From: an uncultured Bacteroidales bacterium | GTDB lineage: Bacteria > Bacteroidota > Bacteroidia > Bacteroidales > WCHB1-69 | DNA: 64,000 nucleotides | NCBI GenBank assembly: GCA_900316305.1 | Contig: ONCM01000011.1 | Location: forward strand, 1,863 to 65,862 | Reading direction: 5' to 3' | Shown: piece after piece, positions 392 to 50,846 of the stretch | Layout of the letters: each line of letters opens with the position of its first letter | Position numbering within the stretch: position 1 is the stretch's first letter | Notes under the pieces: model-generated | The model's input: only the letters and a program-made list of their open reading frames with translations | The model's database searches: none | Told to the model about the DNA's origin: nothing | Made by a program: the position numbers and the translations under genes

Positions 392-468
392 GCCAAGAGC
401 TAAGAGCTAAGAGCTAAGAGCCAAGATCCAAAAGCTAAAAGCCAAAAGCTAATAGCTAATAGCTAAAA
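392..468. repeat. Heptamer tandem array (AAGAGCT / AAAGCYA / AATAGCT units)
   Basis: gccaagagctaagagctaagagctaagagcc...aaagctaaaagccaaaagctaatagctaatagctaa. It contains the stop codon of the porin gene (463-465). Confidence 0.9.
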
Positions 469-1629
469 CCGTACGGATACTTTTGCTGCCCACGTATGTC
501 CGGGCTTCTGGTGATCAGCACGACATTTAAGCGTGTAGTCCAAATGCACACGGACATGTTCCTCCGGCCACCATTCGAGGTCGAAGGAGAAATAGTGGGA
601 GGTGGTAGTGGGTTCCTGTTTGTCACGGACATAGTAGTCGTAGCGGAAGAGCGGGCGCAGACGCTGCACAGCAGAACTCTTGCTCCCCCACCCCATGTAG
701 AACCAATAACCGACAAACGCGTACAGGCCTCGCGTCTTCACCAGATAGACGGAGTCAGCGGCCATCGGGTCGAAATCGGCAATACCTGTGGTGCCCTGCA
801 GATACTCGCTACGGGCGGTCCAATGTTTACCCAAGTATTCCGCGCCGCACGACCAACGGTTGCGGGGCGCGTTCCGGTCCTTGAAAAGCGGATAGTTGCC
901 TAAATAAACAGATCCTGACAAACGGAAATTCTTCACAAAAGGATAGAAATCCAAACGAGCGGAGAAGTCTTTGCTCAGGTTATCTTTCTTGATATTGATG
1001 CCACCACCGCCGAAAATGCCCGCATAATAGTTCAAGATGGGTATTCTCTCGTCGCCGAGCTTGTAGTCCACCAGCGTACCCGACAACATCGCTCCGATTT
1101 CCAGACCGTTGGCATATTCAGGAATGCCGGAAATGTCGTTGAAGCCAGCCAACGCGGCCACGGACTGAGAGAGTTCCACAAATTCCAAGTCCAAAGGTGA
1201 CAGGAAGTTATCCATCGTATAAGGCGTTTTGATCTGGCCTATCCAAAGGTGGGCATATTTGCAGAACTTCACCCGCAACCACGCATCCAACAGGCGCGGC
1301 GTAAAGGCCAAATCCGCCTGCAAACGGAAGTCAAGCATCGGGTGAAGATTGCCAGAGAAGTCGAAACGGGCACGACGCAACATCATGACACTGGTTTTCG
1401 TCACGGTGCCGTCATTTTCAGGCTGCAACGCATAGTCATATTGGGCATCCACAAAGCCGTGAATCTGGAGATAATCGCTGAGCTTCCACACCCGCTCCTT
1501 CTTCACTTTCCCAGACAGCGAATCCGACTGCGCAAAAGCGTCGGAAGGCGAAAAAAGAAGCAAGATCAGGATAAAAAACAGGCAAAAAGTCGCAAAATCA
1601 AACTGATACGGCTTTGCTATATCTCTCAT
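463..1629 (-). CDS. Phosphate-selective porin O/P family outer-membrane protein
   Basis: Signal peptide ending AFAQ. Motifs RRARFDFSG, DAWLRVKF and GQIKTPYTMDNF are typical of porin O/P. Start taken at MRDIAKPY (ATG 1629) inside the 399-aa ORF. Confidence 0.7.
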   Translation of the reverse strand: MRDIAKPYQFDFATFCLFFILILLLFSPSDAFAQSDSLSGKVKKERVWKLSDYLQIHGFVDAQYDYALQPENDGTVTKTSVMMLRRARFDFSGNLHPMLDFRLQADLAFTPRLLDAWLRVKFCKYAHLWIGQIKTPYTMDNFLSPLDLEFVELSQSVAALAGFNDISGIPEYANGLEIGAMLSGTLVDYKLGDERIPILNYYAGIFGGGGINIKKDNLSKDFSARLDFYPFVKNFRLSGSVYLGNYPLFKDRNAPRNRWSCGAEYLGKHWTARSEYLQGTTGIADFDPMAADSVYLVKTRGLYAFVGYWFYMGWGSKSSAVQRLRPLFRYDYYVRDKQEPTTTSHYFSFDLEWWPEEHVRVHLDYTLKCRADHQKPGHTWAAKVSVRF

Positions 1630-1820
1630 AACCAATATTATAAAGGAACAAAAATAAACCAAATTTGATTTTGCAAAGATAGCAAATACATCATTATTAT
1701 GTATGTTTACATATTTTAAGCTGCTACTATTCCGCGACTGGCAACATCACGGTACTCTATGCGCACACTTTTACGGAAAAAATCCTATTTTTGCCGCCTA
1801 AAACTGCAAAACAATTACGT

Positions 1821-2306
1821 ATGAGCGAACAATATCCCTTAACGATTTTCAAGGACAACCAGCCGGTGACCATTTACGATGAGCAGGAATGGAACCGTTT
1901 CGTGCAAGATTATACCCTGATTCACGCGGCGGGAGGCCTTGTTTCCAACGAAAACGACGAAATCCTGATGATTTTCCGACTCGGATGCTGGGATTTTCCA
2001 AAAGGGAAAGTCGAAGAGGGCGAAGACTGGCCCACGGCGGCCGTCCGCGAGGTGGAAGAGGAAACCGGTCTGCGGAACATTCTCCTGAAAGAAGCCTTCG
2101 TTAACACCTATCACACTTATATCCTGAAAGATACGCCTATCCTGAAAATCACCCACTGGTACTCAATGCAGGCACATTCCCAATCACTCGTCCCCCAGAC
2201 CGAAGAGGATATCGCACAGGCGGTGTGGGTGCCAGTGGCGGAGGTTTCCTCGCGGCTGAAGGAATCCTATTTGTCATTGAGGGAGCTTTGGGGGATGATG
2301 CGATGA
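1821..2306 (+). CDS. NUDIX hydrolase
   Basis: Nudix box GKVEEGEDWPTAAVREVEEETGL. ATG at 1821 (MSEQ); the track start at 1791 is a TTG. Confidence 0.8.
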   Translation: MSEQYPLTIFKDNQPVTIYDEQEWNRFVQDYTLIHAAGGLVSNENDEILMIFRLGCWDFPKGKVEEGEDWPTAAVREVEEETGLRNILLKEAFVNTYHTYILKDTPILKITHWYSMQAHSQSLVPQTEEDIAQAVWVPVAEVSSRLKESYLSLRELWGMMR

Positions 2307-2403
2307 AAGACGATGAAGGACGATGAAAAACGATGAAAAACGATGAAAAACGATGAAAAACGATGAAAAACGATGAAAAATAACGATGAAAAGCGATGAA
2401 AAG
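2301..2403. repeat. Decamer tandem array CGATGAARRA, 10 units
   Basis: Eight in-phase units from 2301 plus two more after a TAA insert. The NUDIX stop TGA (2304-2306) is in unit 1 and the hydrolase ATG (2396) is in the last unit. Confidence 0.95.
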
Positions 2404-3787: not shown

Positions 3788-3802
3788 AAATTCAACCATC
3801 CT

Positions 3803-3847
3803 ATTCTTCATTCTTCATTCTTCATTCTACATTCTACATTCTACATT
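3803..3847. repeat. Heptamer array ATTCTTC x3 / ATTCTAC x3-4
   Basis: Read directly; lies between the hydrolase stop and the YfcC stop. Confidence 0.9.
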
Positions 3848-3849
3848 GA

Positions 3850-5454: not shown

Positions 5455-5463
5455 TCTTTTTAA

Positions 5464-5617
5464 TGGTTATTGGTTATAGATGTTTAGAGTTTAGAGTTTA
5501 GAGTTTAATGTTTAGGAGTTTAGGAGCTTAGGAGTTTAGGAGCTTAGGAGCTTAAGTTCAAAGTTCTATGTCTAAGTTGAAAAGCCAAAAGCTAACAGCA
5601 AACAGCTAATAGCCAAC
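5464..5617. repeat. Composite heptamer arrays (GGTTATT, GTTTAGA, GGAGYTTA, AGCTAAC...)
   Basis: Fills the whole YfcC-ROK intercistronic gap. Confidence 0.9.
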
Positions 5618-7851: not shown

Positions 7852-7907
7852 TGCTGGCTCTTGGCCTTTCGCTTTTAGCTATTGGCTAAATGGCACTCGC
7901 GAGAAAC

Positions 7908-7937
7908 TGTAGAGACGTGGTGCACCACGTCTCTACA
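7908..7937 (+). terminator. Perfect 30-nt palindrome downstream of the aminotransferase gene
   Basis: TGTAGAGACGTGGTGCACCACGTCTCTACA followed by TTGTTT. Confidence 0.55.
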
Positions 7938-7953
7938 TTGTTTAAGGAATTTT

Positions 7954-8035
7954 GCCAACAGCTAACAGCCAATAGCCAAAATCTAGGTCAACAGTCAATG
8001 GTCAACAGTCAATGGTCAATAGTCAAAAGTCAAAA
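7954..8035. repeat. Heptamer arrays (CAGCYAA, CAGTCAA/TGGTCAA) containing the EamA start codon
   Basis: gccaacagctaacagccaatagccaaaa...ggtcaacagtcaatggtcaacagtcaatggtcaatagtcaaaagtcaaa. A reverse-complement-like arm at 7853-7889 sits on the other side of the terminator palindrome. Confidence 0.9.
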
Positions 8036-8923
8036 TGGATCGGGCACCTCGCGGTGCTGACCGTCTATATCATCTTCGGGGTCAACCCGAACTGTTCAAA
8101 GGCGGTGGTGCCGGAGTATATCACCCCAGAGGCTTACACCGCGCTGCGACTGTTCGTCGGGTCGGCGGGATTCTGGATCATTTCCCTGTTCACCCCGCAC
8201 GAAAAGGTGGCCAAACGGGATATGTGGACCATCGTTTTCGGAGCCGTTTCCCTTTACGGCACGCTATGGGCCTTCGCGGAGGCCATGCGCTACATCTCCC
8301 CCACCTACGTGTCGCTGGTTTCGGCCATGTCGCCCCTCGTGGTGATGCTGATGGCCGCCATCTTCCTCAAAGAGCCCATCACCACACGCAAGGCCATGGG
8401 CGTCTTCTTCGGCATCGCCGGTGCGCTGATTATGATCCTCTTTTCCCTACACGGCGACGCACGCTACAGTAACCTCGGCGCCCTGCTTTGTCTCGTAAAC
8501 ATCTTGTTTTACGCCACTTATCTCATCATCACCCGAGCCATCTCTCCCAAATATTCGCCCGTGACCATGATGAAGTGGATGTTCCTGTTCAGCTTCGTTT
8601 TCAGTCTGCCTGCCGCCATCCCCACCGTCAAGGATTCGCCATTGCTGATGGGCACCGCGCCCGCTATGGCCTACGTCAACATGGGGATCGTCGCCCTCTT
8701 TGCCACCGTGCTGGCCTACTACCTGCTGCCCGTCGCTCTGCGGCACATCCGCCCGACCACCGTCAGCATGTACAGCAACCTGCAACCCTTCATCACCGCC
8801 ATCCTCGCCATCGCCGTCGGCCAGGACGTCTTCACCTGGAACAAACCCGTCGCCCTCGTCCTCATCATCTTCGGCGTGTTCCTCGTCACCACCAGCAGGG
8901 CGAAAGGAGACATCAATACGTAA
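8012..8923 (+). CDS. EamA/DMT family transporter
   Basis: About 10 TM helices in two EamA-like halves. The start codon lies inside a heptamer array. Confidence 0.7.
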   Translation: MVNSQKSKWIGHLAVLTVYIIFGVNPNCSKAVVPEYITPEAYTALRLFVGSAGFWIISLFTPHEKVAKRDMWTIVFGAVSLYGTLWAFAEAMRYISPTYVSLVSAMSPLVVMLMAAIFLKEPITTRKAMGVFFGIAGALIMILFSLHGDARYSNLGALLCLVNILFYATYLIITRAISPKYSPVTMMKWMFLFSFVFSLPAAIPTVKDSPLLMGTAPAMAYVNMGIVALFATVLAYYLLPVALRHIRPTTVSMYSNLQPFITAILAIAVGQDVFTWNKPVALVLIIFGVFLVTTSRAKGDINT

Positions 8924-8925
8924 AA

Positions 8926-8981
8926 CATTGACCATTGACTGTGTAACCATAAACTGTAAACCTCAATAACCAATAACCATT
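8926..8981. repeat. Composite array TTGACYA - TAAACYR - CAATAAC (short version)
   Basis: cattgaccattgactgtgtaaccataaactgtaaacctcaataaccaataaccatt, ending 6 nt before the ATG at 8988. Confidence 0.9.
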
Positions 8982-8987: not shown

Positions 8988-10166
8988 ATGTTCGTCATCA
9001 TTTTCCTCATCCTGCTCCTCCTCTTTTTCATCACCCCGGACATCTACATCTCGGCTGTCTATCTTCGGCAAGCCCCGATGGTCTGGCGGATTTTGTTTTT
9101 TCTGCCGACCGTCGTCAGCTTTCTTTCCATCGTGGGAGTGTACTATCGGGGATCCTCTAGCGTCTATACCCTCATTTTTCTCTTTATCCTGCTTTGCGTT
9201 GCCATGCCGAAGCTGGTTTTCATGATTTTCTCGCTGCTGTCCAGACTGTTTGGTCATTGGAGTCCAACCGCTGCGACGATTACCAGCATTGTCGGGGTAA
9301 TCGCCGTGTCCGCCGTCTTCTTTGTGGCGTTCTATGGGCTCACGTTCGGATGGAAAAGACTTGAAGTACAACACGTTGACCTTTATTTCGACCATCTGCC
9401 TGCGGCGTATGACGGCTACCGCATCGCGCACCTGAGCGACCTCCATGTGGGTTCCTATCGGAAGAAGACCGGTTTCGTGGAGAAGGTGGTGCAGCGCGTG
9501 AACGAGGAGAGGCCGGATCTGGTGGTCTTCACCGGCGACTTGGTGAACACCGATCCCCACGAGCTGACGCCCTACATCCCCGTTCTGTCGAAACTCACCG
9601 CCCCGGACGGCGTGTTCTCGGTGCTCGGCAACCACGACTACTGTCTATACGGGAAGCCGAAGCGTTGGGCGGACGTGCGCGAAGGTGGCCTGATTGTGGC
9701 GGACATCGAGCGCAAGATGGGTTGGCGGATGCTGATGAACGACGCCCGCATCCTCACCCGCGACACCGACCGCATCGCCATCGTCGGGGTGGAAAACACG
9801 GGCAAGCCACCGTTCCCGCAGATCGGCAACCTGCAAGGTGCGGTAAAGGGCATAACAGACTATGACACCATAAAAAGCAGCGACGACCTTTTCACCATCC
9901 TGCTCACCCACGACCCGTCGCACTGGCGTATGGAGGTGCTGCCGAAGACGCACATCCCACTGACCCTCAGCGGGCACACGCACTCCGCCCAGCTACGCAT
10001 CGGCAACTGGTCGCCATCAAAATGGATGTACGAGGAATGGGACGGATTGTACGAGTCCGGGGACCAGAAACTTTACATCTCGCAAGGCATTGGCGGCACT
10101 TTCCCGTTCCGCTTCGGGGCAAGGCCGAGAATTGTGATTATTACGTTGAGGAGAAATCATGAATGA
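8988..10166 (+). CDS. Membrane-anchored metallophosphoesterase
   Basis: N-terminal TM helices followed by HLSDLHVG, GDLVN, GNHD and GHTH calcineurin-like motifs. Confidence 0.8.
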   Translation: MFVIIFLILLLLFFITPDIYISAVYLRQAPMVWRILFFLPTVVSFLSIVGVYYRGSSSVYTLIFLFILLCVAMPKLVFMIFSLLSRLFGHWSPTAATITSIVGVIAVSAVFFVAFYGLTFGWKRLEVQHVDLYFDHLPAAYDGYRIAHLSDLHVGSYRKKTGFVEKVVQRVNEERPDLVVFTGDLVNTDPHELTPYIPVLSKLTAPDGVFSVLGNHDYCLYGKPKRWADVREGGLIVADIERKMGWRMLMNDARILTRDTDRIAIVGVENTGKPPFPQIGNLQGAVKGITDYDTIKSSDDLFTILLTHDPSHWRMEVLPKTHIPLTLSGHTHSAQLRIGNWSPSKWMYEEWDGLYESGDQKLYISQGIGGTFPFRFGARPRIVIITLRRNHE

Positions 10167-10217
10167 AGAATGAAGAATGTAGAATGCATAATTATGAATG
10201 ATGAATGATGAATGATG
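10161..10217. repeat. Heptamer array GAATGAA/GAATGTA/GAATGAT
   Basis: Contains the metallophosphoesterase stop codon. It is the reverse complement of the 3803 array unit. Confidence 0.9.
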
Positions 10218-10410
10218 GATGGTGAGGGGGGAATAATAATTGGGGCAGAACAATTTTTGCATTTAACTCAATATCTTTCAATCAATTACAACATACTCTA
10301 AAATAATTTCAGTTGCTGTGTGACGAAATGTCCATTTTTTACGACTAAAAGGTATAAGCACATTAATTAAACACTTAAACCTTAATACTCATAATTAAAC
10401 ACAGAAAAAA

Positions 10411-13572: not shown

Positions 13573-13580
13573 CATTTTTT

Positions 13581-13690
13581 AATGGTTATTGGTTATAGGT
13601 TATTGGTTATTGAAGGTTAATGGTTAATGGTCAACAGTCAACAGTCAACAGTCAACAGTCAACAGTCAATGGTCAATGGTCAATGGTCAA
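13581..13690. repeat. Composite array (reverse orientation): GGTTATT - GGTTAAT - GGTCAAC/GGTCAAT
   Basis: Encodes the last PrmC codons (LTIDH*) and runs up to the cysteine-desulfidase promoter. Confidence 0.9.
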
Positions 13691-14539
13691 GCTTGCCGTT
13701 AGGAAGCGGGGGCGGCCATTGAGGTCCTGTAGGGAACGGATTTCTGAAAAGCCGTGACGGGCGAACAGGTCGATCATCTCCTCGTGGTAATCGTGATAGG
13801 TTTCCACCCAGAGCGTGCCGCCGGGAGCCAGCACCAGCCGGGCAAGACTTGCTAACGCTTTATAACACCAAAGTTTATCCTCGTCGGGCACGAAAAGGGC
13901 TTGCGCAGGCTCGTAGTCCACCACATTGCGATGCATCGCGGCTCGGTCGGAAGCGGGGATGTAAGGGGGATTGCTGACCAGCACATCGAACTTCTCTTCC
14001 GCAAAAGGAAGGTTCTCGATATCGAACATGTCATGGCAGACGAAAGTCACCCCGACCCCATTGCGTTCGGCATTCCCACGGGCGACCGTCAAAGCCTCCG
14101 ATGAAATGTCGGTAGCGAAGACCTTGGCCTCTTTCAGCGATTTCGCCAACGAGACGGCAATGCAGCCGCTGCCCGTGCCCACATCCCATATACGCGGTGC
14201 CGAACCTGCATATCGTTGCACAACCATCTGCACCAATTCCTCCGTCTCAGGTCTGGGAATCAGCACCGCCGGCGACACTGTGAACGACAGTCCGTAAAAT
14301 TCGGTCTCGCCCAACACGTACTGCACCGGACAACCTTCCGCCAGCCGTTCCACATCGCGTCGGACTTCCTGCATCAGCGACTCATCCAAAGTCTCATTCC
14401 CGCGCAATGCCAGTTCGTACCGTTCCATTCCCAGCTTCGCACACACATACCACGAAGCAATCGCAGCCGCCTCACGAGGGTCGTAGAGCGGCTGCAAGGT
14501 TGCGGTCATTTCGTTAATTAGATTCTTAATTGTGAGCAT
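13673..14539 (-). CDS. prmC: Peptide chain release factor N5-glutamine methyltransferase
   Basis: SAM motif VGTGSGCI and catalytic NPPY (VSNPPYIP). Confidence 0.85.
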   Translation of the reverse strand: MLTIKNLINEMTATLQPLYDPREAAAIASWYVCAKLGMERYELALRGNETLDESLMQEVRRDVERLAEGCPVQYVLGETEFYGLSFTVSPAVLIPRPETEELVQMVVQRYAGSAPRIWDVGTGSGCIAVSLAKSLKEAKVFATDISSEALTVARGNAERNGVGVTFVCHDMFDIENLPFAEEKFDVLVSNPPYIPASDRAAMHRNVVDYEPAQALFVPDEDKLWCYKALASLARLVLAPGGTLWVETYHDYHEEMIDLFARHGFSEIRSLQDLNGRPRFLTASLTIDH

Positions 14540-14543
14540 TGGG

Positions 14544-14669
14544 GATTGATGAAATACGATGAATGACGATGAATTATGTCGATGAATTATGTCGATGAAT
14601 GAAACGATTATTCATAATTCATAATTCATAATTCATCATTCATCATTCTACATTCTACATTCTACATTC
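14544..14669. repeat. Two-armed heptamer array (GATGAAT-type arm, then its complement ATTCATN / ATTCTAC arm)
   Basis: The arms are mutually complementary around 14605-14612. Fills the DoxX-prmC gap. Confidence 0.9.
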
Positions 14670-15831: not shown

Positions 15832-15838
15832 TATTATA

Positions 15839-15920
15839 GGTTTACATGTTTACAAGTTTATAAGCTTACAAGCTTACAAGTTTACAAGCTTAAGCTCCTA
15901 AGCTCCTAAGCCCCTAAGCC
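15839..15920. repeat. Heptamer arrays GTTTACA/AGCTTAC and AGCTCCTA around an AAGCTT centre
   Basis: Contains the DUF1599 stop codon. Fills the DUF1599-DoxX gap. Confidence 0.85.
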
Positions 15921-21935: not shown

Positions 21936-21975
21936 TAATGGTTATTGGTTATTGAAGGGTTATTGGTTATTGAAG
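21936..21975. repeat. GGTTATT array arm directly after the porin-like gene stop
   Basis: taatggttattggttattgaagggttattggttattgaag, complementary to 22160-22192. Confidence 0.85.
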
Positions 21976-22192: not shown

Positions 22193-22201
22193 TTTATAAA
22201 A

Positions 22202-31201: not shown

Positions 31202-31212
31202 TTTTATACTTT

Positions 31213-34639: not shown

Positions 34640-34656
34640 ATACCTATATTATATAT

Positions 34657-34750
34657 TCATCGTCTTTCATCGTCTTTCATCGTCTTTCATCGTCTTTCAT
34701 CGCTTTTCATCGCTTTTCATCGTCTTTCATCGCTTTTCATCGTCTTTCAT
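34657..34750. repeat. Decamer array CATCGYYTTT x9-10 (reverse complement of the 2301 unit)
   Basis: In-phase units from 34661 to 34750. Lies upstream of the 34639 lipoprotein gene in that gene's orientation. Confidence 0.95.
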
Positions 34751-35510: not shown

Positions 35511-35550
35511 ACCAATAACCTATAACCAATAACCAATAACCTATAACCTA
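35511..35550. repeat. Heptamer array CAATAAC/CTATAAC containing the stop of the OadA-like gene
   Basis: accaataacctataaccaataaccaataacctataaccta. Confidence 0.9.
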
Positions 35551-37329
35551 TTTCACAAACGCAATCACATCGCCTTTGTTGACCTTCTGGCCTTGTTCGG
35601 CGACCGTTTCGAGGATCTGACCGTCGAAGAGGCTTACCACAGGTTCCATGCCGTAGTAGGTGCTCACCATGCAGACGGTGTCGCCCTTCTTCAACGCCGT
35701 GCCGACCGGTTTGGGCATCGACTTCTCGTCACCCACGGCAATCTCCCAAAGGATTTGTCCGCTCACGGGCGCGACCACCGGCTGGGCCTCGGGATACATC
35801 TTTCTGACACGCTCGAAAATAATCTGTTGACGATCTTGCGGGGCAGCGGCAACGCCACCAGCCTGCTTCTTCTGCATGGCGGCCTCCAACTCACGATTGA
35901 AGTTCTGTTTCGCCCTACCCTCTTTATAATCAACATATTGGCGTTCGTGCATAGCTAATTCGAAGAGTTCCTCTTCGTCCTGACCGACATCCCAGCCCTT
36001 TTCTTCCATCATCTTGCGGTACTTAGGCAGCTCGTCGGGATAGTTGTCTTGCGGCACGCCGTCGAAGAACTCGAAGCCTTTTTCCTTGGCCAACTCGATG
36101 ATTTCGGGAGCCAGCGGTCCAGGCAGACGGCCGCACTTGCCGAGAATCATATCCCACTGGTTCTGCTCCATGTAGGTAAAGCGCGGTTTGCCCTCCACCT
36201 CAGCGCGGACGTTCATCAGCGCGATGTTCTTGACATACTGGCTGAACGGGGTCACCAAACCGGGCGTGCCCACCATCGGCCACACGGCAGCCACCTCGTC
36301 GAACAGCTTGACCAGCAGCTGGTCTTCGTTGAGCGTTGGCTGGCCGTTTTTCTCCAATGTCTTGTTGAGATAGCTGTGGATGCCCTTCAGGTCGGCCATC
36401 ATGGAGCCCATCATGCCGCCGGGCAGACCGCAACCGAGCAGTAAGGATGTGGAAATCTTGTTCTTCGGCTCAATGAAGTAGCCGAGGAAGTCGTCCATGA
36501 ACTTTTGGGTGAGCGAACGGGCCTCCATGTAAGCGTTCATATCAATGTCGGCGACCTCGAAACCGTCGTTGCGGAGCATGGCCTGCACGGCAATGACATC
36601 GGGATGAACCATACCCCAGGAAAGCGGTTCCATAGCCACGTCGATGATGTCGGCGCCGTTGCGGCAGACTTCCAGCACGGAAGCCATGGAGAGGCCGGGA
36701 CCCGTATGTCCGTGATACTGAATCACCAAGTGCGGGTACTTCTCCTTGATAGCCTTCACCAACTTGCCGAGGTCCGCAGGACGACCGATGCCGGCCATGT
36801 CCTTCAGACCAATCTCCTTCGCGCCGTACTCCACATATTTATCGACCACGGAGAGATAGTGCTCTAATGTATGGACGGGCGAGTGCGAGATGCTGAGTGC
36901 GGCCTGCGAAATGAGGCCGAACTCATTGGCGTATTTGATGGAGAGTTCCAGATTCCGGTGGTCGTTGAGGCCGCAGAAAGAGCGGACCACATCCACGCCT
37001 TGTGCCTTCTTGACCTTGAACATCAGTCGGCGCACGTCGGCGGGCACAGGGTACATGCGCAGACCATTGAGGGCGCGTTCCAGCATCTGGCACTGGATGC
37101 CGGCAGCCCGCAACGGCTTCGTCCACTCGCGCACGGCGTGGTTGGGGTTCTCGCCGTACATCAGGTTCACCTGCTCGAAGGCACCGCCATTGGTTTCCAC
37201 GCGATCGAAGCAGCCCATGCGCGCAATCACAGGCGCAATTTCGGTCAACTGATCCACGCGCGGCTGATACTTTCCGGACGACTGCCACATGTCACGATAC
37301 ACCAAACAGAATCCGATTCTCTTTTTCAT
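35548..37329 (-). CDS. Oxaloacetate decarboxylase alpha / pyruvate carboxylase subunit B-like carboxyltransferase with a C-terminal biotinyl-fold domain lacking the canonical lysine
   Basis: 593 aa with an HMGL-like TIM barrel (YRDMWQSS, HGHTGPGLS). The C-terminal segment APVSGQIL...GDTVCMVSTYYGMEPVVS...GDVIAFVK aligns to a biotinyl domain, but EAMKM is replaced by STYYGM. Confidence 0.65.
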   Translation of the reverse strand: MKKRIGFCLVYRDMWQSSGKYQPRVDQLTEIAPVIARMGCFDRVETNGGAFEQVNLMYGENPNHAVREWTKPLRAAGIQCQMLERALNGLRMYPVPADVRRLMFKVKKAQGVDVVRSFCGLNDHRNLELSIKYANEFGLISQAALSISHSPVHTLEHYLSVVDKYVEYGAKEIGLKDMAGIGRPADLGKLVKAIKEKYPHLVIQYHGHTGPGLSMASVLEVCRNGADIIDVAMEPLSWGMVHPDVIAVQAMLRNDGFEVADIDMNAYMEARSLTQKFMDDFLGYFIEPKNKISTSLLLGCGLPGGMMGSMMADLKGIHSYLNKTLEKNGQPTLNEDQLLVKLFDEVAAVWPMVGTPGLVTPFSQYVKNIALMNVRAEVEGKPRFTYMEQNQWDMILGKCGRLPGPLAPEIIELAKEKGFEFFDGVPQDNYPDELPKYRKMMEEKGWDVGQDEEELFELAMHERQYVDYKEGRAKQNFNRELEAAMQKKQAGGVAAAPQDRQQIIFERVRKMYPEAQPVVAPVSGQILWEIAVGDEKSMPKPVGTALKKGDTVCMVSTYYGMEPVVSLFDGQILETVAEQGQKVNKGDVIAFVK

Positions 37330-37543: not shown

Positions 37544-39082
37544 ATGAAAAAACTACTGTTATCCGCCATTTTCATGGCATTCGCCGTCTGCATGATGGCA
37601 CAAAGCGTGGCGCTTTGCGAACCTTTCTCCAATTGTTGGATCAGACGTTCCACTATCATCGGAACATCCATCGGACAGGATGAAGAGACCCTCTACTACT
37701 ACCTGTCGCCCCGTCATTCTGACTCTTTCAAACCGAAAACCTGGACCGAGCATGTTTTCTTCATCGACAAGAACACGATGGCCAAAACGGATATTCCCGT
37801 CACCACACCCAACACCCACACAATGCTGGATGCCATCCTTTCCGAGGACGGAGTCATCGCATTGTACCAGAGCCTGTCCAAGAAGGGTGACCAAGCCATC
37901 TTCACCATCGCCAATATTGACAGAAACGCCAAGCAGGTGACTTTGGACAATGCCACTACGGTTACCGTTCCGACCAACGCCAAATACTGGCCGGAGTTCA
38001 AGACCGCCAAATCTCCGGACGGCAAGCTGCTGGCGGTATTAGTGATGGTCACCGGAAAAGACAGCCAGTTAGAGAGCCTTTCCGCATTGGTAATCAACAA
38101 CCAAGGCGAGGTCGTGTGGAACGGGGCCGTCACCCCAGAATTCGGAGGAAAGAGCTTCTCGTTGGGCAACCTCACGATGGACAACAACGGTACCCTCTAC
38201 CTGCCGGCCTACACCTGCCAGGTGAGCGGCAAGAACATATCCAATGTAAACCTTATGATGACCAAGACCACCGAAGACGGCACCGAAACCTACACGGAGG
38301 AAGTGAGCTTCGGCACCCCGCAGAATTTCACCGCCAAGGTGCTCAAGGACGGCAACATCGCCGTTGCGGGCTACTACACAGAATCCATGACCAACACCGC
38401 CATTCAGACGAGCGGCTACTACTTTTACAAGTTCGACACTAAGTCGGAGAACATCACTGACCTGAAAAACTTCCCCTTCGCCAGCGACTACGTGGAGAAG
38501 ACGGCGTGGGCCCGTTTCTCCTCCGTACTCGGCAACCAGCAGTACTCCATCAGCGCGGGCGACATCTTCGAGTTGGCAAACGGCAATCTGGTGCTTTGCG
38601 GCGAACACCGCTTCATCAAGGAGATTTATGACGGCAACATGCACAGCTACACCTACCAGATGCTCACCAAAAACATACTGGTCTCCACCCTCAAGACCGA
38701 CGGCACGTCCAACTTCACCATGGTGGAGAAGCAACAGATGTCGTCCAAGGGCACCTTCCCTGACGACGACTGGCGGCCCGTCTGCGTCTCCTACACCGCC
38801 TTCGCCCATGGGGACGATATGTACTTCCTCTTCAACGACGACACCAAGAACATCCCCTACCCCGGAAAGGATGCGGTCTGCACTTTCGCCGGTTTCGGTA
38901 TCACCAACAACTGGAAAAGCGTGCTGATGCGCCTCACCCCCGACCAGAAACTCACTCAGCGCGTATTCCCTGAGACCAAGCAGCTGCTCCGCTATGTGGA
39001 TTTCACCGACGGCGACAACTTCTACGCCTCCGGCATCAGAGGCGGCGAGGTCTATATGACGAAATACGCAATCGAGGAGTGA
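37544..39082 (+). CDS. Secreted protein, unknown function
   Basis: Signal peptide MKKLLLSAIFMAFAVCMMAQS; 512 aa, beta-rich. Confidence 0.55.
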   Translation: MKKLLLSAIFMAFAVCMMAQSVALCEPFSNCWIRRSTIIGTSIGQDEETLYYYLSPRHSDSFKPKTWTEHVFFIDKNTMAKTDIPVTTPNTHTMLDAILSEDGVIALYQSLSKKGDQAIFTIANIDRNAKQVTLDNATTVTVPTNAKYWPEFKTAKSPDGKLLAVLVMVTGKDSQLESLSALVINNQGEVVWNGAVTPEFGGKSFSLGNLTMDNNGTLYLPAYTCQVSGKNISNVNLMMTKTTEDGTETYTEEVSFGTPQNFTAKVLKDGNIAVAGYYTESMTNTAIQTSGYYFYKFDTKSENITDLKNFPFASDYVEKTAWARFSSVLGNQQYSISAGDIFELANGNLVLCGEHRFIKEIYDGNMHSYTYQMLTKNILVSTLKTDGTSNFTMVEKQQMSSKGTFPDDDWRPVCVSYTAFAHGDDMYFLFNDDTKNIPYPGKDAVCTFAGFGITNNWKSVLMRLTPDQKLTQRVFPETKQLLRYVDFTDGDNFYASGIRGGEVYMTKYAIEE

Positions 39083-39110
39083 GCAGTTAGCAGTTAGTAG
39101 TTAGCAGTTA
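39083..39110. repeat. Heptamer array GCAGTTA x4
   Basis: Immediately after the stop at 39080-39082. The same unit recurs in the Rhs cassette leaders. Confidence 0.85.
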
Positions 39111-39156
39111 ACGTGGTAGTACATACGTTAAACAAATAATACATTAAAAACATTTT

Positions 39157-39476: not shown

Positions 39477-41939
39477 ATGACATTCACACGAAAAACCGTA
39501 ACCAAGATTTTATCCACTCTCTTTTTAATACTATTCTGCTGTTTTTCAGCATTTTCACAAAATACCATTCAAGGTCTTCTCCAAGATGAGAACACGGGGA
39601 AGCCGGTACAGTACGCCAACGTGAGTCTGCTGCGGCAAGCGGACAGCGTGCTGGTGGGCTACACCGCCGCCGATGACAAAGGGGCGTTCACCCTGCAGGC
39701 GGTTCCCAACGGCAAATACCGTCTGGTGGTCTTCTTTGTGGGATACGAAAACTACCAGCAGGAACTTCTGGTTGACAAAAACATGGACTTGGGCACCATC
39801 AAGATCAAGCCGGGCACGGCCACCATCGGCGAAGTGGTGGTGAAGGGCGAGCGGCCGCTGTTTGCCGTGGATGGGGAAAAAACCTACTACAACACCGCCG
39901 AAGACCCTACCGTACAGACGGGTACGGCTTCTGATGTACTGCAGAACGCGCCGGGTGTCTCCGTGGATGTAGAGGGCAACGTCACCCTGCGCGGCACCTC
40001 CAGCGTGGAAATCTGGATCAACGACAAGCCCTCGCACATGAACGCCGAGAACCTCAAGATCTACCTCCAGCAGATGCCCGCCAACAGCATCGACCACGTG
40101 GAGGTCATCACCAACCCCTCGGCGCGTTACGGTTCCAAGGCCGACGGCATCATCAACATCGTGACCACCACGAAAGTGATGAAGAACCAATTCGTCAGCT
40201 TCGGTGCCAACGCCTCCATCAAACCGTATGCAAGTCCTTGGATCTCATACGTTTGGAGCAACGAAAAGCTCTCCATCAACCTCTACAGCAACTTCTCTTA
40301 TTCCATGGATCGCTACAACAACATGTCCGACATCTCCATCTATCAGCCCGGACCGGAAGGCCGCGAAATCGTGAGTTTCGAGAAAGACTCCTCCTATTCC
40401 AGGGGCCATAACTTCGGAGGCGGACTCCATTTCAATATGGATTACGAAATCGACAGCATGAACAGCATCTCGTTGTGGAGCGGTTTTTGGCCGAACTTGC
40501 GCAACTTCAACGGCTATTCCGAGACCTATCGCGAAATGTTCATAGACAGTTCTCTTACCCATTATCGAACGTTATCTCCGAGCAGAAGTAACAGCCATTG
40601 GGCTGGTTTTGGGTTCTATTATCTGCATAATTTCGACCAAAACGGGCACAACATCTCCTTGGATGTGAATGGAAGCAGCTGGGGATGGGGAAATGTTGGC
40701 AAAACCGAAAAAGTTTACCTCTCACCGACCGAATATACGCGATTCATGGACGAGAAAAACCGCAGCGGCTCTTTTGATGTGAGCGCGGAATTGACTTACA
40801 ACCGTCCCTATTCCGAAAACGGCGAGATTTCGCTCGGCTATTACGGCGGATACACCCATTCCAACGAATACGATTACTTGGACACGCTGAACAACGGGAT
40901 TTGGGTGAGAGATGAAATGCGAAGCTATAGAAGTCTGGCACCGGAGATTGAGAACCAGGTGTTCTTCACGTTGCAGCACAAATTCGGCAACTTCACCATC
41001 AAGCCGGGCGTGCGCCTGGAGCACACCTACACCAGCATCCTCTACCCCGAAATCGTGCCCGACACCTTCGCCGTACGGCGGAACTTCTTCCACGTGCGCC
41101 CGTCATTGCACCTGTCGTACCGCACCGAATCGATGCACAACTTCCGCCTGAGCTACACCTTCCGCAGCAGCAACCCTGATGCCGAAAATCTCACCCGCTT
41201 TGTCAAATACGAAGAGGAGAGCTTCTACGGCGGCAACCCCGACCTGAACTCCATCCTGACACATTCCGTGGAAGCGGGTTGGCAGAAATACTGGGAGAAG
41301 TTCGGTTCTGTGGGAGTGACGCTCTACTACCGCGCCAAAACCCGGGACATCGACGAAATCACGGTGCCCGCCTACCACGAGATTTACGGCCGTCAGGTTT
41401 CCTTCACCTATCCCGTGAACGTGGGCAAGGCGATGAACACCGGCTTGGAGGTCAACACCATGTACCGTCCGAACGCCATGTTCAACATACGCCTCTACGC
41501 TAACGTCTATCATCGTTACATAGAAACGATGTACGACAACGAATTCTACAAGCAGCAGATGTGGTCTTACAGCTTCAACATGAGCGTATGGGCTAAGCTT
41601 TGGAAACGTCTGGAAATCAACGTGTCCGGCTATTACGGCTCACCTTCGATTTCCCTGTTCAGCAGCACCCACGCCCACTACAGCATCAATGCGGGTCTGC
41701 GCGCCGACTTCTTCGACAAGAAGCTTTCGGTCTATCTGAACGCCAACGACATCTTCAACTGGAACAGCTGGGGATTCGACAACGACAGTCCCTACTACGT
41801 GTCGCACGGCACGTTCAAGTACAATTCCCGTACAGTGGCGTTGGGCTTCACGCTCAGATTCGGAAAGATGGAGCTGGAGAACCAAGCCCGCCAAGGCGCC
41901 GCCAGCGAGAGCAGCGGCAGCGGTCAGGGCGGCCATTGA
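39477..41939 (+). CDS. TonB-dependent-receptor-like outer-membrane beta-barrel protein with CarboxypepD_reg-like N-domain
   Basis: Signal peptide ...AFSQ, carboxypeptidase-regulatory-like fold (GKYRLVVFFVGYE), plug region (DVLQNAPGVSVDVEGNVTLRGTSS). ATG at 39477, 32 nt after a TATTTTTG box. Confidence 0.7.
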   Translation: MTFTRKTVTKILSTLFLILFCCFSAFSQNTIQGLLQDENTGKPVQYANVSLLRQADSVLVGYTAADDKGAFTLQAVPNGKYRLVVFFVGYENYQQELLVDKNMDLGTIKIKPGTATIGEVVVKGERPLFAVDGEKTYYNTAEDPTVQTGTASDVLQNAPGVSVDVEGNVTLRGTSSVEIWINDKPSHMNAENLKIYLQQMPANSIDHVEVITNPSARYGSKADGIINIVTTTKVMKNQFVSFGANASIKPYASPWISYVWSNEKLSINLYSNFSYSMDRYNNMSDISIYQPGPEGREIVSFEKDSSYSRGHNFGGGLHFNMDYEIDSMNSISLWSGFWPNLRNFNGYSETYREMFIDSSLTHYRTLSPSRSNSHWAGFGFYYLHNFDQNGHNISLDVNGSSWGWGNVGKTEKVYLSPTEYTRFMDEKNRSGSFDVSAELTYNRPYSENGEISLGYYGGYTHSNEYDYLDTLNNGIWVRDEMRSYRSLAPEIENQVFFTLQHKFGNFTIKPGVRLEHTYTSILYPEIVPDTFAVRRNFFHVRPSLHLSYRTESMHNFRLSYTFRSSNPDAENLTRFVKYEEESFYGGNPDLNSILTHSVEAGWQKYWEKFGSVGVTLYYRAKTRDIDEITVPAYHEIYGRQVSFTYPVNVGKAMNTGLEVNTMYRPNAMFNIRLYANVYHRYIETMYDNEFYKQQMWSYSFNMSVWAKLWKRLEINVSGYYGSPSISLFSSTHAHYSINAGLRADFFDKKLSVYLNANDIFNWNSWGFDNDSPYYVSHGTFKYNSRTVALGFTLRFGKMELENQARQGAASESSGSGQGGH

Positions 41940-42064
41940 CCATTGACTATTGACTATTGACCATTGACTGCTGACTGTGTAACCATAAACCATAAACTGT
42001 AAACTATAAACTATAAACCTCAATAACCAATAACCAATAACCAATAACCTATAACCTATAACCA
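41933..42064. repeat. Composite array TTGACYA x6 - TAAACYR x6 - CAATAAC/CTATAAC x6 (long version)
   Basis: Starts on the receptor-like gene's stop codon and ends 4 nt before the nspC ATG. Uses the same junction strings (tgactgtgtaaccataaac; taaacctcaataacc) as 8926 and 22090. Confidence 0.95.
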
Positions 42065-42068
42065 AATA

Positions 42069-43223: not shown

Positions 43224-43306
43224 TTCAGAATTATGAATTAAGAATGATGAATGATGAATAAAGAGGATAGAGGGAGGAAGAAGTAGAAGGTAAATTATAA
43301 CAAGAA

Positions 43307-43708
43307 ATGGCATTTACATTGAAAATACGGGAAAACGGTTCGCAGCAGGAGGTTTTCGACCCCGTGCGGCAGAAGTGGGTCGTGATGACCCCCGAGGAGC
43401 GCGTGCGGCAGGTCTTCATCCTCTACCTGCTAAACGTCAAGGGATTGCCACTCTCGCACCTCTCGGTGGAGCACGCCGTGACCGTCAACGGAATGACCCA
43501 ACGTTACGACCTCGTGGTCTTCGACGACGCGCTGCAACCGTATATGGTGGTCGAGTGCAAGGCCCCGCACATAAAGCTCACGCAAAAGGTCGTGGAGCAG
43601 GCCGGCCGCTACAACAGCATCCTGAAGGCACCGCTGCTGTGCGTCACGAACGGGGTGGAACAGAGGATGTTTGAGATCGACTTTGAGGATAAGAGGATAA
43701 GAGGATAA
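43307..43708 (+). CDS. Type I restriction enzyme HsdR N-terminal domain-like small protein
   Basis: 133 aa, PEERVRQ...YDLVVF...MVVECKAP pattern (PD-(D/E)xK-like). Confidence 0.65.
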   Translation: MAFTLKIRENGSQQEVFDPVRQKWVVMTPEERVRQVFILYLLNVKGLPLSHLSVEHAVTVNGMTQRYDLVVFDDALQPYMVVECKAPHIKLTQKVVEQAGRYNSILKAPLLCVTNGVEQRMFEIDFEDKRIRG

Positions 43709-43851
43709 GAGAATTGGAGGATGAAAAAGCGATGAAGGGGCGATGAAAAGCGATGAAGGGGCGATGAAAGGACGATGAAAAAGCGATGAAAAGCGATGAA
43801 GGGGCGATGAAAGGACGATGAAAAAGCGATGAAAAAGCGATGAAGGACGAC
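43685..43851. repeat. GAGGATAA x3, then a decamer array GCGATGAARR x about 13 with a 40-nt super-period
   Basis: Contains the HsdR_N-like gene's stop codon and fills the convergent gap to paralogue A. Confidence 0.9.
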
Positions 43852-49131: not shown

Positions 49132-49190
49132 CCTAGGGCTCGCTCCCGCTCACCCTAGGCTGACATACGTCGGGCCTTCAGCCCTTTTGG
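49132..49190. repeat. REP-like double-hairpin element, copy 2 (inverted relative to copy 1)
   Basis: cctagggctcgctcccgctcaccctaggctgacatacgtcgggccttcagcccttttgg. It aligns to the reverse complement of copy 1 with a few differences. Confidence 0.75.
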
Positions 49191-49222
49191 AAATAATATT
49201 TCTATTGCCTGTTGCCTTATTC

Positions 49223-50713
49223 CTACGCCAACGACCATTCCGCCCCGTCCTTGGTGTCCTTCACCACGATGCCGGCGGCGTTGAGGTCGTCGCGAATTTT
49301 GTCCGACAACGCCCAGTTCTTTTCGGCTTTGGCGGTCTTGCGCATCTCCAACACCAACTGCATGGCCTTATCGAGGGCGTCGTGCTCGCGGGTGTCACCC
49401 TGTGCGAGTTCGGGTTTGATGCCCAAGATGTCGAAGAAGAAGGTGCGGAAGGTGGTCTTCAGCAACTCAATATCTTCAGCCGTAAGCGTGGCGTGACCGT
49501 CCTTCACAGCGTTGATGATGCGCACTGCGTCAAACAACTCGGCAATCACCTTCGGGGTGTTGAAGTCGTCGTTCATCGCCTCGTAGCAGCGTTCCTGCAG
49601 GGCTTCGATGTTCTCGGTGGAGGTGGCACCGGCCTTCAAACTGTCGAGGTGACGTTCGGCGGCATATAGTTTTTCCAGTCCCTTCTCGGCAGATTGCAGT
49701 GCGGCGTTGCTGAAATCGACCGTGCCGCGATAGGAGGCCTGCAAAACGAAATAGCGAATCGTCATCGGCGAATAGGCCTTCTCCAACTTAGGATGGCTGC
49801 CGGTGAAAAACTCGTTGAGGGTAATGAAGTTGCCGAGCGACTTGCCCATCTTCTGTCCCTCAATGGTAATCATATTGTTGTGCATCCAGTAGCGCACGGA
49901 ACTCTTGCCGTTGGCCACGGTGCTCTGACACACTTCCGACTCGTGGTGCGGGAACAGCAGGTCCATGCCGCCGCCGTGGATGTCGAACTGCTCGCCCAAA
50001 TACTTGGTGCTCATGGCCGTACATTCGATATGCCAGCCCGGGAAACCGACGCTCCAGGGGGAGTTCCAGCGCATGATGTGCTCGGGGGCGGCCTTCTTCC
50101 AGAGGGCGAAGTCGGCGGGATTGCGTTTCTCGCTCTGACCGTCCAGCTCGCGGGTGTTGGCAATCAGCTCTGCCAAAACGCGACCCGAAAGCTTGCCGTA
50201 GCCGAAGTCCTTGTCGAACTTCTCCACATCGAAATAGACGGAGCCTTCCGACACGTAGGCATAGCCCGCATCAAGAATTTTTTGCACCATCTCGATTTGC
50301 TCGATAATGTGGCCGGAAGCGCGAGGCTCAATGGAGGGTCCCTTCACATTGAGCGCATCCATGGCCTTGTGGTAGCTGTCCATGTAGTATTGCGCCACCT
50401 CCATGGGTTCCAGCTGCTCCAAACGGGCCTTCTTGGCGATCTTGTCTTCACCCTCGTCGGCATCGTGCTCCAGATGGCCCACGTCGGTGATGTTGCGCAC
50501 GTAGCGCACCTTGTAACCGATGTGCGTGAGGTAGCGGAACACCACGTCGAAGGTGACCGCAGGGCGCGCATGCCCCAGGTGCGGCTCGCCATAGACCGTC
50601 GGTCCGCAGACATAGAGGCCCACATGGTCGGGCGTGATGGGCTTGAACAGCTCTTTTCTCTTACTTAACGTATTGAATAAAAAGACTTTGCCTTTATTGT
50701 CGGTGTTTTTCAT
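49223..50713 (-). CDS. cysS: Cysteine--tRNA ligase
   Basis: HIGH-type motif PHLGHAR, KMSKS-type motif KMGKS; 496 aa. Confidence 0.95.
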
Positions 50714-50780
50714 ATCTTATTATTAAATTCTATTACCATTATTTTTTCGTCCTGTAAAGGCGTATGCGATACGCCCCTAC

Positions 50781-50846
50781 ATTTCATCGTTCTTTCATCG
50801 TTCTTTCATCGTTCATTCATCGTTCATTCATCGCCCTTCATCGTCC
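50781..50846. repeat. Decamer-type array CATCGTTCWTT
   Basis: Lies between the acyl-CoA ligase stop and the cysS promoter region; abuts the stop at 50847. Confidence 0.85.

Follow-up and report, generated by a model that had tools for sequence, protein, structure and literature searches.

What are the arrays of very short tandem units that lie between housekeeping genes in an uncultured Bacteroidales bacterium, and do they serve the genes around them? We analyzed a 64,000-nucleotide stretch (the window; positions 1,863 to 65,862 of contig ONCM01000011.1, GenBank assembly GCA_900316305.1) of a cattle-rumen metagenome scaffold, in which an initial annotation had described 7- and 10-nt tandem arrays in nearly every intergenic gap. 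The arrays are real, nonrandom, and clade specific. They are intergenic heptanucleotide tandem repeats of the type known as short tandemly repeated repetitive (STRR) sequences or long simple sequence repeats (SSRs). With somewhat more confidence than doubt, we regard them as dispersed modular arrays of short period (7, 8, 10, or 11 nt) that are driven by slippage, copied between loci, and tolerated, and that probably act as mildly favored spacers between cistrons.

Extent, spread, and turnover of the arrays

Gaps of at least 15 nt between long open reading frames (ORFs) were censused over the first 52.6 kb of the window (positions 1 to 52.6 kb; n = 39). A lag scan of the gaps found 783 bases with a period of 7 nt, versus approximately 1 base in gaps shuffled in place; lags of 8, 10, and 11 nt accounted for 134, 161, and 150 periodic bases, respectively, and no periodic bases were found at lags 4 to 6, 9, or 12. 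Tandem Repeats Finder returned 85 rows of short-period arrays (up to 16 copies), including arrays of every unit that the initial annotation had listed, in gaps that are also readable by eye; its gene labels were likewise correct. Arrays above the threshold were present in 18 of the 39 gaps (19 with a two-copy cassette at 8924-8987) and made up 24% of the gap bases. "Nearly every gap" must therefore be narrowed to about half, although the arrays themselves are genuine. By gap type, they occurred in 14 of 22 co-directional gaps (including 8924-8987), four of nine convergent gaps, and one of eight divergent gaps. Co-directional spacers are their main location, and at least 70% of the spacer is occupied in nine gaps. 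Similar arrays continue beyond position 50,846 (the entries from 52702 onward in Table 1). With head-to-tail units of at most 11 nt and lengths beyond chance, all of these sequences fit the description of long SSRs.

The 19 heptamers found as exact dimers in the window collapsed into four families linked by single mismatches, whereas only 1.7% of random heptamer pairs are so related. The small vocabulary, the density, and the reuse of units claimed initially thus stood well beyond chance. One family comprises TTGACYR, TAAACYR, and CAATAAC, which have a common ACYR core. Array pairs within one gap were frequently related to each other (direct, 17 of 44; inverted, 14 of 44), compared with approximately 8% per orientation between gaps (p = 1e-5). 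The single-substitution links and the relatedness within gaps point to local duplication and homogenization. Five window cassettes have the same module order (TTGACYR, TAAACYR, CAATAAC, A-rich tail, ATG) and the same irregular junction, TAAACC-TCAATAACCAATAACC; in the cassette between the TonB receptor gene and nspC, the stop codon of the receptor gene sits in the first TTGACYR unit. The 21-mer AAACCTCAATAACCAATAACC was found in three window gaps and had 38 exact matches at 37 rumen metagenome loci, before unrelated housekeeping genes of several species, mostly 18 to 31 nt from the ATG and with a conserved tail (ATAACC[AT]TTA[N]AAA). An identical irregular junction at unrelated loci is more than independent slippage can produce, and sequence has therefore been copied between loci, with transposition or ectopic gene conversion between arrays as possible routes. 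The junction motif had no match in 2.9 million viral contigs, and we rejected a viral origin of the arrays on this ground.

The rplW-rplB gap was identical in three assemblies obtained from different samples with different assemblers (L082, which is the record of the window, L083, and L084); therefore, the arrays are not artefacts. Many short contigs end in or beside arrays (L085, L087-L089; P0002, P0003, P0006, P0013, and others), and many public contigs with this L23 gene measure just 500 to 700 nt and terminate in, or at the edge of, the array that follows rplW. Contigs that stop in this way could be taken as signs of an assembly or sequencing artefact; they evidently mean that the arrays fragment short-read assemblies of this clade. 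Given that the same arrays recur across samples and assemblers and that orthologous arrays in Joint Genome Institute (JGI) and NCBI metagenome contigs differ cleanly by whole units, we consider the chance of an artefact negligible.

Dense heptamer arrays were confined to the window and its closest relatives. The relatives at the nspC locus are all metagenome-assembled genomes (MAGs) of uncultured Bacteroidales, and the nspC loci from the genome collection represent different species with little synteny. Of 119 co-directional spacers examined in the clade, 47 (39%) had arrays, versus 7 of 211 (3%) in other Bacteroidales (p = 3e-17).

Within the clade, the arrays change rapidly. Over 8.8 kb, the window and L124 are 99.0 to 99.6% identical, and all six indels between them (+21, +14, -28, +24, and -12/-2 nt, reported as whole units) fall within arrays. 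L124 has three extra TTGACYR and two extra CAATAAC units in the compact cassette upstream of the phosphoesterase gene (99.6% identity), lacks 28 nt (four units) in the PrmC-SDH_alpha spacer, and differs by +24 and -14 nt in the DoxX/MauE-PrmC spacer. Other relatives show the same pattern: L091 (98% identical) lacks 20 and 30 nt of the decamer array at 34652..34750, L086 and L087 are short of exactly one TAAACCA unit in the rplW-rplB gap, L002 is one GAATGAT unit shorter after nspC, and the orthologous porin-fumC spacers of L104 and L114 vary in copy number. Array-confined indels of 7, 14, 21, 28, 20, and 30 nt between flanks with 98 to 99.6% identity are consistent with replication slippage by whole units, at a rate sufficient to separate genomes that are 99% identical. 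Over longer distances, the turnover of units is complete. The nspC-HSDR_N spacer is 0 to 10 nt long in L006, L007, L010, and L013 versus 76 to 200 nt in the window, L002, L003, L004, and L005, with different units in each.

Placement and strand polarity

The -7 promoter box (TAnnTTTG) was found in 7 of 46 array gaps versus 35 of 78 other gaps (p = 8e-4), and arrays were present in 4 of 36 divergent gaps versus 75 of 221 other gaps (p = 0.006). The scarcity of promoter boxes in array gaps and of arrays in divergent gaps indicates that the arrays mainly occupy operon-internal or 3'-side spacers. Orthologues of nspC that have their own promoter box had no arrays, while five of nine without the box had them. 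The spacers that bear arrays measure only 0 to 12 nt in relatives (nspC-HSDR_N, 0 to 10 nt; rplW-rplB, 5 to 12 nt).

The arrays also have a polarity relative to the flanking genes. Arrays nearer a stop codon mostly had more G than C on the sense strand (34 of 45), while those nearer a start codon mostly had more C than G (28 of 41; Fisher p = 7.5e-5; Spearman rho = -0.42), in a test that is independent of the unit vocabulary. The strand after stops is rich in G, T, and A, and the strand before starts is rich in C and A. The junction motif was sense oriented upstream of a start in 20 of 27 nonredundant cases, the rest being antisense and 9 to 51 nt past a stop. Cassettes in the window flip with the gene strand, yet the cumulative GC skew takes a monotonic course throughout; the strand rule is therefore tied to transcription and not to replication. 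The possibility of random orientation and placement, named by the initial annotation as a reason to drop a functional interpretation, is countered by this polarity and by the depletion of arrays from divergent gaps.

Bacteroidales in general are depleted of G before starts (GC skew, -0.15 to -0.17), more strongly so in array gaps (-0.31); an excess of G over C after stops (+0.23) is a property of arrays alone. We compared the leaders of 24 nonredundant array-led genes with other leaders in the clade. In the array-led set, the frequency of G was approximately 0 from -20 to -1, the median minimum free energy (MFE) of positions -60 to +3 was 0.0 versus -6.8 kcal/mol (p = 3e-9), and there were 0.08 versus 0.73 upstream AUGs per leader (p = 6e-4). 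A was also more frequent at -3 (0.71 versus 0.48) and at -6 (0.62 versus 0.41; p = 0.05 each). Several whole array gaps were nearly free of structure (MFE, 0 to -2.6 kcal/mol over 62 to 89 nt). Ribosome profiling ties such leader features to efficient initiation in the Bacteroidia, which are blind to Shine-Dalgarno sequences (PMC6847099).

Some array gaps are long hairpins composed of a G-rich array and its complement, with fold z scores of -5.9 (rplW-rplB; 31202-31334), -5.2 (7852-8011), and -3.0 (14540-14661). In the CAATAAC family, 7 arrays were paired and 60 were unpaired, and all seven paired arrays run from the G-arm to the C-arm. The rplW-rplB spacer is the most informative case. In relatives with 76 to 91% identical L23 it measures 5 to 12 nt (ancestral spacer, 5 nt), and four lineages with 94 to 100% identical L23 have insertions of 84 to 133 nt. 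These have a common design, i.e., stop, G/T-rich array, loop, complementary C/A-rich array, free A-rich tail of 12 to 19 nt, and ATG, built from three unit families (GTTTAAG/TAAACCA, AGGTTAAA/TTAACCT, and GGTTATK/CAATAAC). The insertions show that arrays are compatible with a highly expressed operon, and they suggest that the architecture has been selected or that some process makes inverted arrays at stop-start junctions.

Four further candidate explanations of array form were rejected. A relay of mini-ORFs from units containing ATGA (GAATGAT, CGATGAAAAA) fails because the chains overshoot the real starts or end 37 to 48 nt before them; the overlapping chains arise automatically from the sequence of the units. 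The presence of stops in every frame does not account for the choice of strand (66 sense versus 54 antisense arrays). A pairing of 5' and 3' arrays around one gene is not seen, as genes led by CAATAAC end in GAATGAW arrays or plain hairpins and not in GGTTATT. General RNA structure was dismissed because array gaps as a class did not exceed other gaps in structure; hairpins form only a subset of them.

Catalogue of arrays and neighboring elements

The positions of the arrays are collected in Table 1, together with those of hairpins resembling repetitive extragenic palindromes (REPs).

Table 1. Short-period arrays and REP-like hairpins of the window (positions are those of the window)
Feature	Position	Strand	Context
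(AAGAGCT/AAAAGCY/AATAGCT) x ~11	383..470	-	Convergent gap; minus-strand AGCTNTT directly after stop of porin gene (463-1662)
(CGATGAAAAA) x ~10	2297..2402	+	Fills NUDIX-hydrolase spacer; TGA stop and next ATG lie within units; RNA MFE 0.0
(GAATGAA/GAATGTA) x 7	3801..3849	-	Directly after stop of DcuC/YfcC-like gene
AGCTNTT units, (TAAGCTCC/TAAACTCC) 8-mers, (TAAACTC) x 5, CTATAAC-CAATAAC, A-rich tail, ATG	5460..5617	-	ROK-DcuC spacer
GGCTCTT/AGCTATT and inverse GCCAACA/GCTAACA	7855..8036	+	Aminotransferase-EamA spacer; around hairpin 7908-7937; fold z = -5.2
(GTCAACA/GTCAATG) x 7	within 7855..8036	+	3' of hairpin 7908-7937; runs into EamA start codon
TTGACYR x 2, TAAACYR x 2, CAATAAC x 2	8928..8979	+	Compact cassette; EamA-phosphoesterase
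(GAATGAA/GAATGAT/GAATGTA) x 10	10155..10225	+	Begins within final codons of phosphoesterase gene
(TTGACCA/TTGACTG) x 9, TTAACCA x 2, (CAATAAC/CTATAAC) x 5, -7 box TATTTTTG, ATG	13579..13692	-	PrmC-SDH_alpha spacer
(GAATGTA/GAATGAT/GAATTAT) x 9, then complementary TTCATCG-type units	14547..14671	-	DoxX/MauE-PrmC spacer; GAATGTA-type array after stop; hairpin z = -3.0
8-mers (GTTTACAA/GCTTACAA, TAAGCTCC)	15834..15924	-	DUF1599-DoxX spacer; 98% filled
(GGTTATTG), purine-rich (GAGGAGAGGATGA) array, (TAAACYR) x 10, (CAATAAC) x 4, tail, ATG	21939..22193	+	Porin-fumC spacer; GGTTATTG array after stop; outer arms complementary
(GTTTAAG/GTTGAGA) arm, loop, (TAAACCA) x 8 arm, free A-rich tail	31203..31331	-	rplW-rplB spacer; hairpin z = -5.9
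(AGACGATGAA) x 9.5	34652..34750	-	Upstream of gene 34118-34639; sole divergent gap with array
(CAATAAC/CTATAAC) x 6	35511..35552	+	Convergent gap; GGTTATT directly after stop of minus-strand gene 35548-37329; adjoins REP-like hairpin 35491-35507
(GCAGTTA) x 5	39074..39112	+	Begins in final codons of gene 37544-39082; inverse of TAACTGC
(TTGACYR) x 6, (TAAACYR) x 5.6, (CAATAAC/CTATAAC) x 6.4, AAATA-ATG	41931..42066	+	Full cassette; fills TonB receptor-nspC spacer
(GAATGAT/GAATTAW) x 4.6	43228..43264	+	After nspC stop
(GAGGATAA) x 4.8, then (GATGAAAAAGC) x 11.5	43681..43849	+	Convergent gap; GAGGATAA at end of HSDR_N_2 gene
(GAACGATGAAA) x 5.8	50777..50844	-	Directly after stop of AMP-binding ligase gene, then REP-like hairpin 50759-50775
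(TAACTGC/TCACTGC) x 4.7	52702..52735	-	Same array type at 57293-57325 and 58896-58928, ahead of orphan toxin cassettes
ATTCATC- and CATTCTA-type arrays	55533-55569, 62749-62774	-	Ahead of orphan toxin cassettes
REP-like hairpins	35491-35507 and 50759-50775; 7909-7933 and 23569-23593; 25382-25403		

Positions 52600-64000 (-) are low in GC (37 to 44%) and hold a series of orphan C-terminal cassettes of polymorphic toxins (Rhs/YD type), each with a conserved block (...FTFSAKEKDxETGLSYFGSRYYxSDLS; near 55480, 57240, 58840, and 62700) followed by a variable tip. Pfam matches of the tips were Toxin-JAB1 (56485-57444), Peptidase_M91 (58100-59197), and MORN_2 (62991-63926). Each block directly follows a heptamer array of four to five units (TAACTGC, ATTCATC, or CATTCTA type) without stops in the block's reading frame, and recombination of the cassettes may have its boundary at these arrays.

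Three kinds of REP-like GC-rich hairpins (GGCGTATGCGATACGCC, GTAGAGACG...CGTCTC, and GGGGCGAATAATCATTCGCCCC) recur after genes, some of them adjoining heptamer arrays. The sole Rfam match in the window was an Acido-Lenti-1 RNA at 49132-49185 (+; 40.2 bits against a gathering score of 37), a sequence distinct from the arrays. This element (CCTAGGG...CCCTAGG plus GGGCYKWMAGCCC) has an inverted relative at approximately 39164-39218 and also occurs in L004 downstream of nspC. Its dispersal, its two window copies in opposite orientations, and its presence in a relative are more in keeping with a REP-type repeat than with a lone small RNA gene.

Other observations concern gene order and gene calling. 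The S10 ribosomal-protein operon ends after rpsS (30081-30359, -) and is followed by a DUF3667 protein and an extracytoplasmic function (ECF) sigma factor and not by rplV (29411-30376); this break is probably a real rearrangement, given that it is the same in three independent assemblies (L082-L084). A segment of approximately 1 kb (10187-11202) with two small ORFs lacking Pfam matches (10411-10803 and 10775-11176) is missing from the 99%-identical L124, which has approximately 48 nt there instead; the indel adjoins the GAATGAW array at 10155-10225. The strand opposite C/A-rich arrays is free of stops and yields spurious long antisense ORFs (e.g., a 557-aa ORF; 41640-43313 [-] and similar ones), a trap for gene callers working on these MAGs. 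L100 (JAEEGI010010361.1) is an extreme mosaic relative, in which spacers of 300 to 500 nt between housekeeping genes (gaps 4094-4608, 6336-6786, 8877-9208, 10199-10631, and 11325-11602) combine heptamer arrays (CTTTAAA, CTATTAT, TAACCTA, and CAATAAC) with up to five copies per gap of a REP-like element of approximately 50 nt (CTTTCTGCCTGACCTCTGGTCACGGCCTGCGAC...GGAGCAAAC).

Precedents, competing explanations, and meaning

The initial annotation had implied that nothing known explains the arrays, which is not supported. The class was already described, as cyanobacterial STRRs, the long SSRs of Mrazek, and the TAACTGA repeats of MacGregor, and the literature contains the same placement, orientation rule, and hairpins between cistrons (PMC4679880, PMC2670836). 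The main features of the arrays have precedents; what is added here is a recurrent composite cassette, a quantified strand rule, and a fit to initiation independent of Shine-Dalgarno sequences.

Cyanobacterial STRRs are 7-bp repeats that form hairpins between co-transcribed genes, e.g., hupS-hupL; roles in transcript stability or translational coupling have been suggested, and their function is still unknown (PMC2670836). Deletion of heptamer repeats in Nostoc had effects on a reporter, with no mechanism found (10.1101/2022.06.06.494920). The window arrays resemble STRRs in that their tandem 7-nt units belong to few families dispersed over many intergenic loci and can form hairpins between co-transcribed genes (here rplW-rplB and others). 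They differ in their host, which is a rumen Bacteroidales with relatives, promoter boxes, and gene content of the Bacteroidetes type and not a (heterocystous) cyanobacterium, in most of their units, in having a composite cassette of fixed module order and junction, and in being relatable to Shine-Dalgarno-independent initiation. The STRR units of Mazel et al. (1990) are reportedly CCCCAGT (STRR1), TTGGTCA (STRR2), and CAACAGT (STRR3). The window unit GTCAACA (equivalent to CAACAGT; six copies at 13630-13669) equals STRR3 and ATGGTCA is one mismatch from STRR2, both as so reported; CCCCAGT was not seen in the window.

TAACTGA direct repeats occur in Beggiatoaceae, cyanobacteria, and five Bacteroidetes (MacGregor 2015; PMC4679880). 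Of the 14 repeat sets in Flexibacter litoralis, 12 are forward and 1 to 43 nt upstream of a start, and one is reverse and just after a stop. The genes that follow such repeats are unrelated and include some for ribosomal proteins, the corresponding spacers of close relatives are shorter and lack the repeats, contig breaks fall within the repeats, and a role in translation involving bS1 and Csp (cold-shock) proteins has been proposed (PMC4679880). Our arrays have all of these traits of placement, i.e., forward shortly upstream of starts, reverse after stops, before unrelated genes including those for ribosomal proteins, absent from relatives, and at contig breaks. They differ in their many unit families, their much higher density (39% of spacers), and their longer, modular arrays. 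No exact tandem of TAACTGA was found in the window, the nearest being TAACTGC/TAACTAC at 39074-39112, 52702-52735, 57293-57325, and 58896-58928; TAACTGC is one mismatch away.

The survey of long SSRs by Mrazek et al. (2007), as summarized in PMC4679880, describes units of 5 to 11 nt with heptanucleotides dominant, noncoding location, lineage specificity, and growth by slippage. The window arrays agree with this summary on each of the last four points. They differ from it in their composite junctions common to separate loci and their strand rule relative to flanking genes, the survey treating loci, as far as the summary goes, as independent. Mosaic elements are known from other bacteria as pneumococcal BOX (boxA-(boxB)n-boxC), Escherichia coli bacterial interspersed mosaic elements (BIMEs) composed of REPs, and Neisseria Correia elements. 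Like our arrays, these are small, noncoding, modular, and often palindromic, with a variable number of internal modules, and they lie in transcribed spacers and after genes, with which they are co-transcribed. Our modules differ in being units of 7 to 11 nt repeated many times and not blocks of 35 to 45 nt; most copies are not palindromic, and no defined termini or target duplications were found.

The arrays had also been declared not to be promoters, terminators, REPs, or clustered regularly interspaced short palindromic repeats (CRISPRs). This holds in each case, although the resemblance to mosaic BOX/BIME elements is closer than was allowed. We found 24 sigma-70-like sites (18 +/- 3.5 expected) and 12 intrinsic terminators (20 +/- 5 expected), with only one of each in an array gap. 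Units of 7 to 11 nt that are not singly palindromic do not fit the approximately 35-nt imperfect palindrome of REP/BIME, and the lack of spacers, together with unit length, does not fit CRISPR (repeats of 23 to 50 nt with unique spacers). An Rfam 15 covariance search of the window gave no array matches at the gathering score, and no tRNA-related repeats were found.

Among other origins, insertion of nonautonomous mobile elements is possible but doubtful. Palindromic or mosaic elements with heptamer-array arms, comparable to miniature inverted-repeat transposable elements (MITEs), Correia, or BOX, would insert at stop-start junctions and then slip, with single arms as decayed halves. Presence or absence at orthologous sites (rplW-rplB, 5 versus 84 to 133 nt; after nspC, 0 to 10 versus 76 to 200 nt), different elements at one site in sister lineages (rplW-rplB), the identical 21-nt junction at many unrelated loci of several species, termini resembling inverted repeats (TAATGGTTATTGG...CCAATAACCATTA) with a G-arm to C-arm order in 7 of 7 paired CAATAAC elements, and the mixture of arrays and REP-like elements in L100 all agree with insertion. 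However, most CAATAAC-family arrays (60 of 67) are unpaired, lengths vary between 84 and 266 nt with no target-site duplication, fixed length, or conserved loop definable, and no transposase or REP-associated tyrosine transposase (RAYT) gene was seen in the 64 kb and the fragments of related genomes. The junction motif is absent from the viral contigs searched, flush placement and the strand rule would require strong selection after insertion, and the units grade into one another by mutation, which growth in place would lead one to expect. The opposite extreme, neutral slippage debris left by a lineage-specific quirk of replication or repair that inflates noncoding short repeats without selection on strand or place, would account for whole-unit indels with a strong preference for a 7-nt period (as in the Mrazek survey, to the extent summarized in PMC4679880), for clade restriction and rapid unit turnover, and for the fact that arrays often begin where duplication is silent, within the final codons or stop of the upstream gene. 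We consider it improbable, since the significant stop/start polarity flips with the gene strand, divergent and promoter-bearing gaps are depleted of arrays, G and AUG are nearly absent from arrays before starts, and irregular junctions are common to separate loci.

Two functional alternatives assign the arrays a dedicated signal. A cis-regulatory platform in which each 7-nt unit binds one oligonucleotide/oligosaccharide-binding (OB)-fold or RNA recognition motif (RRM) domain (bS1, a cold-shock protein, or a Bacteroidales RRM protein), with copy number as the knob of a translation or stability regulon, is in our view unlikely. It would agree with a strand rule that follows transcription, with the conserved terminal block and tail 10 to 34 nt from the ATG of unrelated genes, with polymorphic copy number, and with ACYR-type units in other phyla (TAACTGA and, reportedly, the CAACAGT of STRR3 of Mazel et al., 1990). 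The period also matches one CspB per heptamer and the bS1 contact near -12 to -15 (PMC4679880, PMC6847099). A sequence-specific reader is nevertheless disfavored by the many unit families that take the same position, even at one site; moreover, the genes behind the arrays have no function in common, no protein emerged as a candidate, and sister lineages manage with 5-nt spacers. Still less probable, and indeed highly improbable, are transcription signals, i.e., promoters, intrinsic terminators, or C-rich sites of Rho loading (rut) that would dampen transcription into the next gene. Arrays before starts are long, richer in C than G, and unstructured, and are to this extent rut-like in sequence, and the TTGAC and TATAAC strings resemble sigma-70 hexamers. 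We rejected the sigma-70-type promoter because these modules lie approximately 85 nt apart and matches are not in excess; terminators are not in excess either, Bacteroidetes boxes (TAnnTTTG) are depleted in array gaps, and termination between rplW and rplB would be harmful in a ribosomal-protein operon.

In the preferred explanation of slippage-driven, dispersed, and mildly favored spacers, the polarity would reflect selection on the mRNA. Ribosomes of the Bacteroidia appear to ignore Shine-Dalgarno sequences and to favor unstructured, A-rich, and AUG-poor leaders, and the C/A-rich strand may provide internal cistrons with a G-free and structure-free landing pad that ends in the conserved A-rich tail. 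A complementary G-rich array, where present, would form a stop-to-start hairpin that leaves the A-rich tail free and that may contribute to transcript stability or processing or draw the stop and the start toward each other. The arrays would then be mutationally driven repeats and not dedicated switches; such a function is inferred from sequence.

Several points weigh against this explanation. The leader set was selected as arrays richer in C than G, so that part of the leader result follows from the selection. The polarity has exceptions: AUG-rich CGATGAAAAA arrays abut the starts at 2396 and 34639, and the C/A-rich strand of L100 is antisense to all genes. A -7 box is present in seven array gaps, and in five of these it separates the array from the ATG, which places the array outside the leader; transcription through the arrays is itself suggested by missing promoter boxes and the context of a ribosomal-protein operon. 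Array gaps as a class were not significantly more structured (median z, -1.7 versus -0.9), and the folding energies of their sense and antisense strands showed no overall difference. The G>C bias after stops is without an independent rationale.

A bolder proposal, which we put forward as speculative and rather unlikely, is that the arrays are evolvable inter-cistronic expression elements that replace translational coupling by Shine-Dalgarno sequences in the Bacteroidia, with a structure-free, bS1-friendly C/A pad at which internal cistrons would initiate de novo, a G-arm that juxtaposes stop and start, and slippage that retunes the expression ratios of neighboring genes. If true, the same logic would also account for the STRR and TAACTGA repeats known from cyanobacteria and Beggiatoaceae, a question open since 1990.

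In practical terms, rumen MAGs assembled from short reads are fragmented by the arrays, and the antisense strands of the arrays give spurious long ORFs. No accepted function has emerged for intergenic heptamer arrays since they became known in 1990, and this clade is an unusually dense natural experiment, offering sister lineages with and without arrays at the same sites (rplW-rplB, 5 versus 84 to 133 nt), strain-level polymorphism in copy number, and a clear strand rule relative to flanking genes. As translation in the host ignores Shine-Dalgarno sequences, a role of the arrays as leaders or landing pads is directly testable with reporters in cultivable Bacteroidia.

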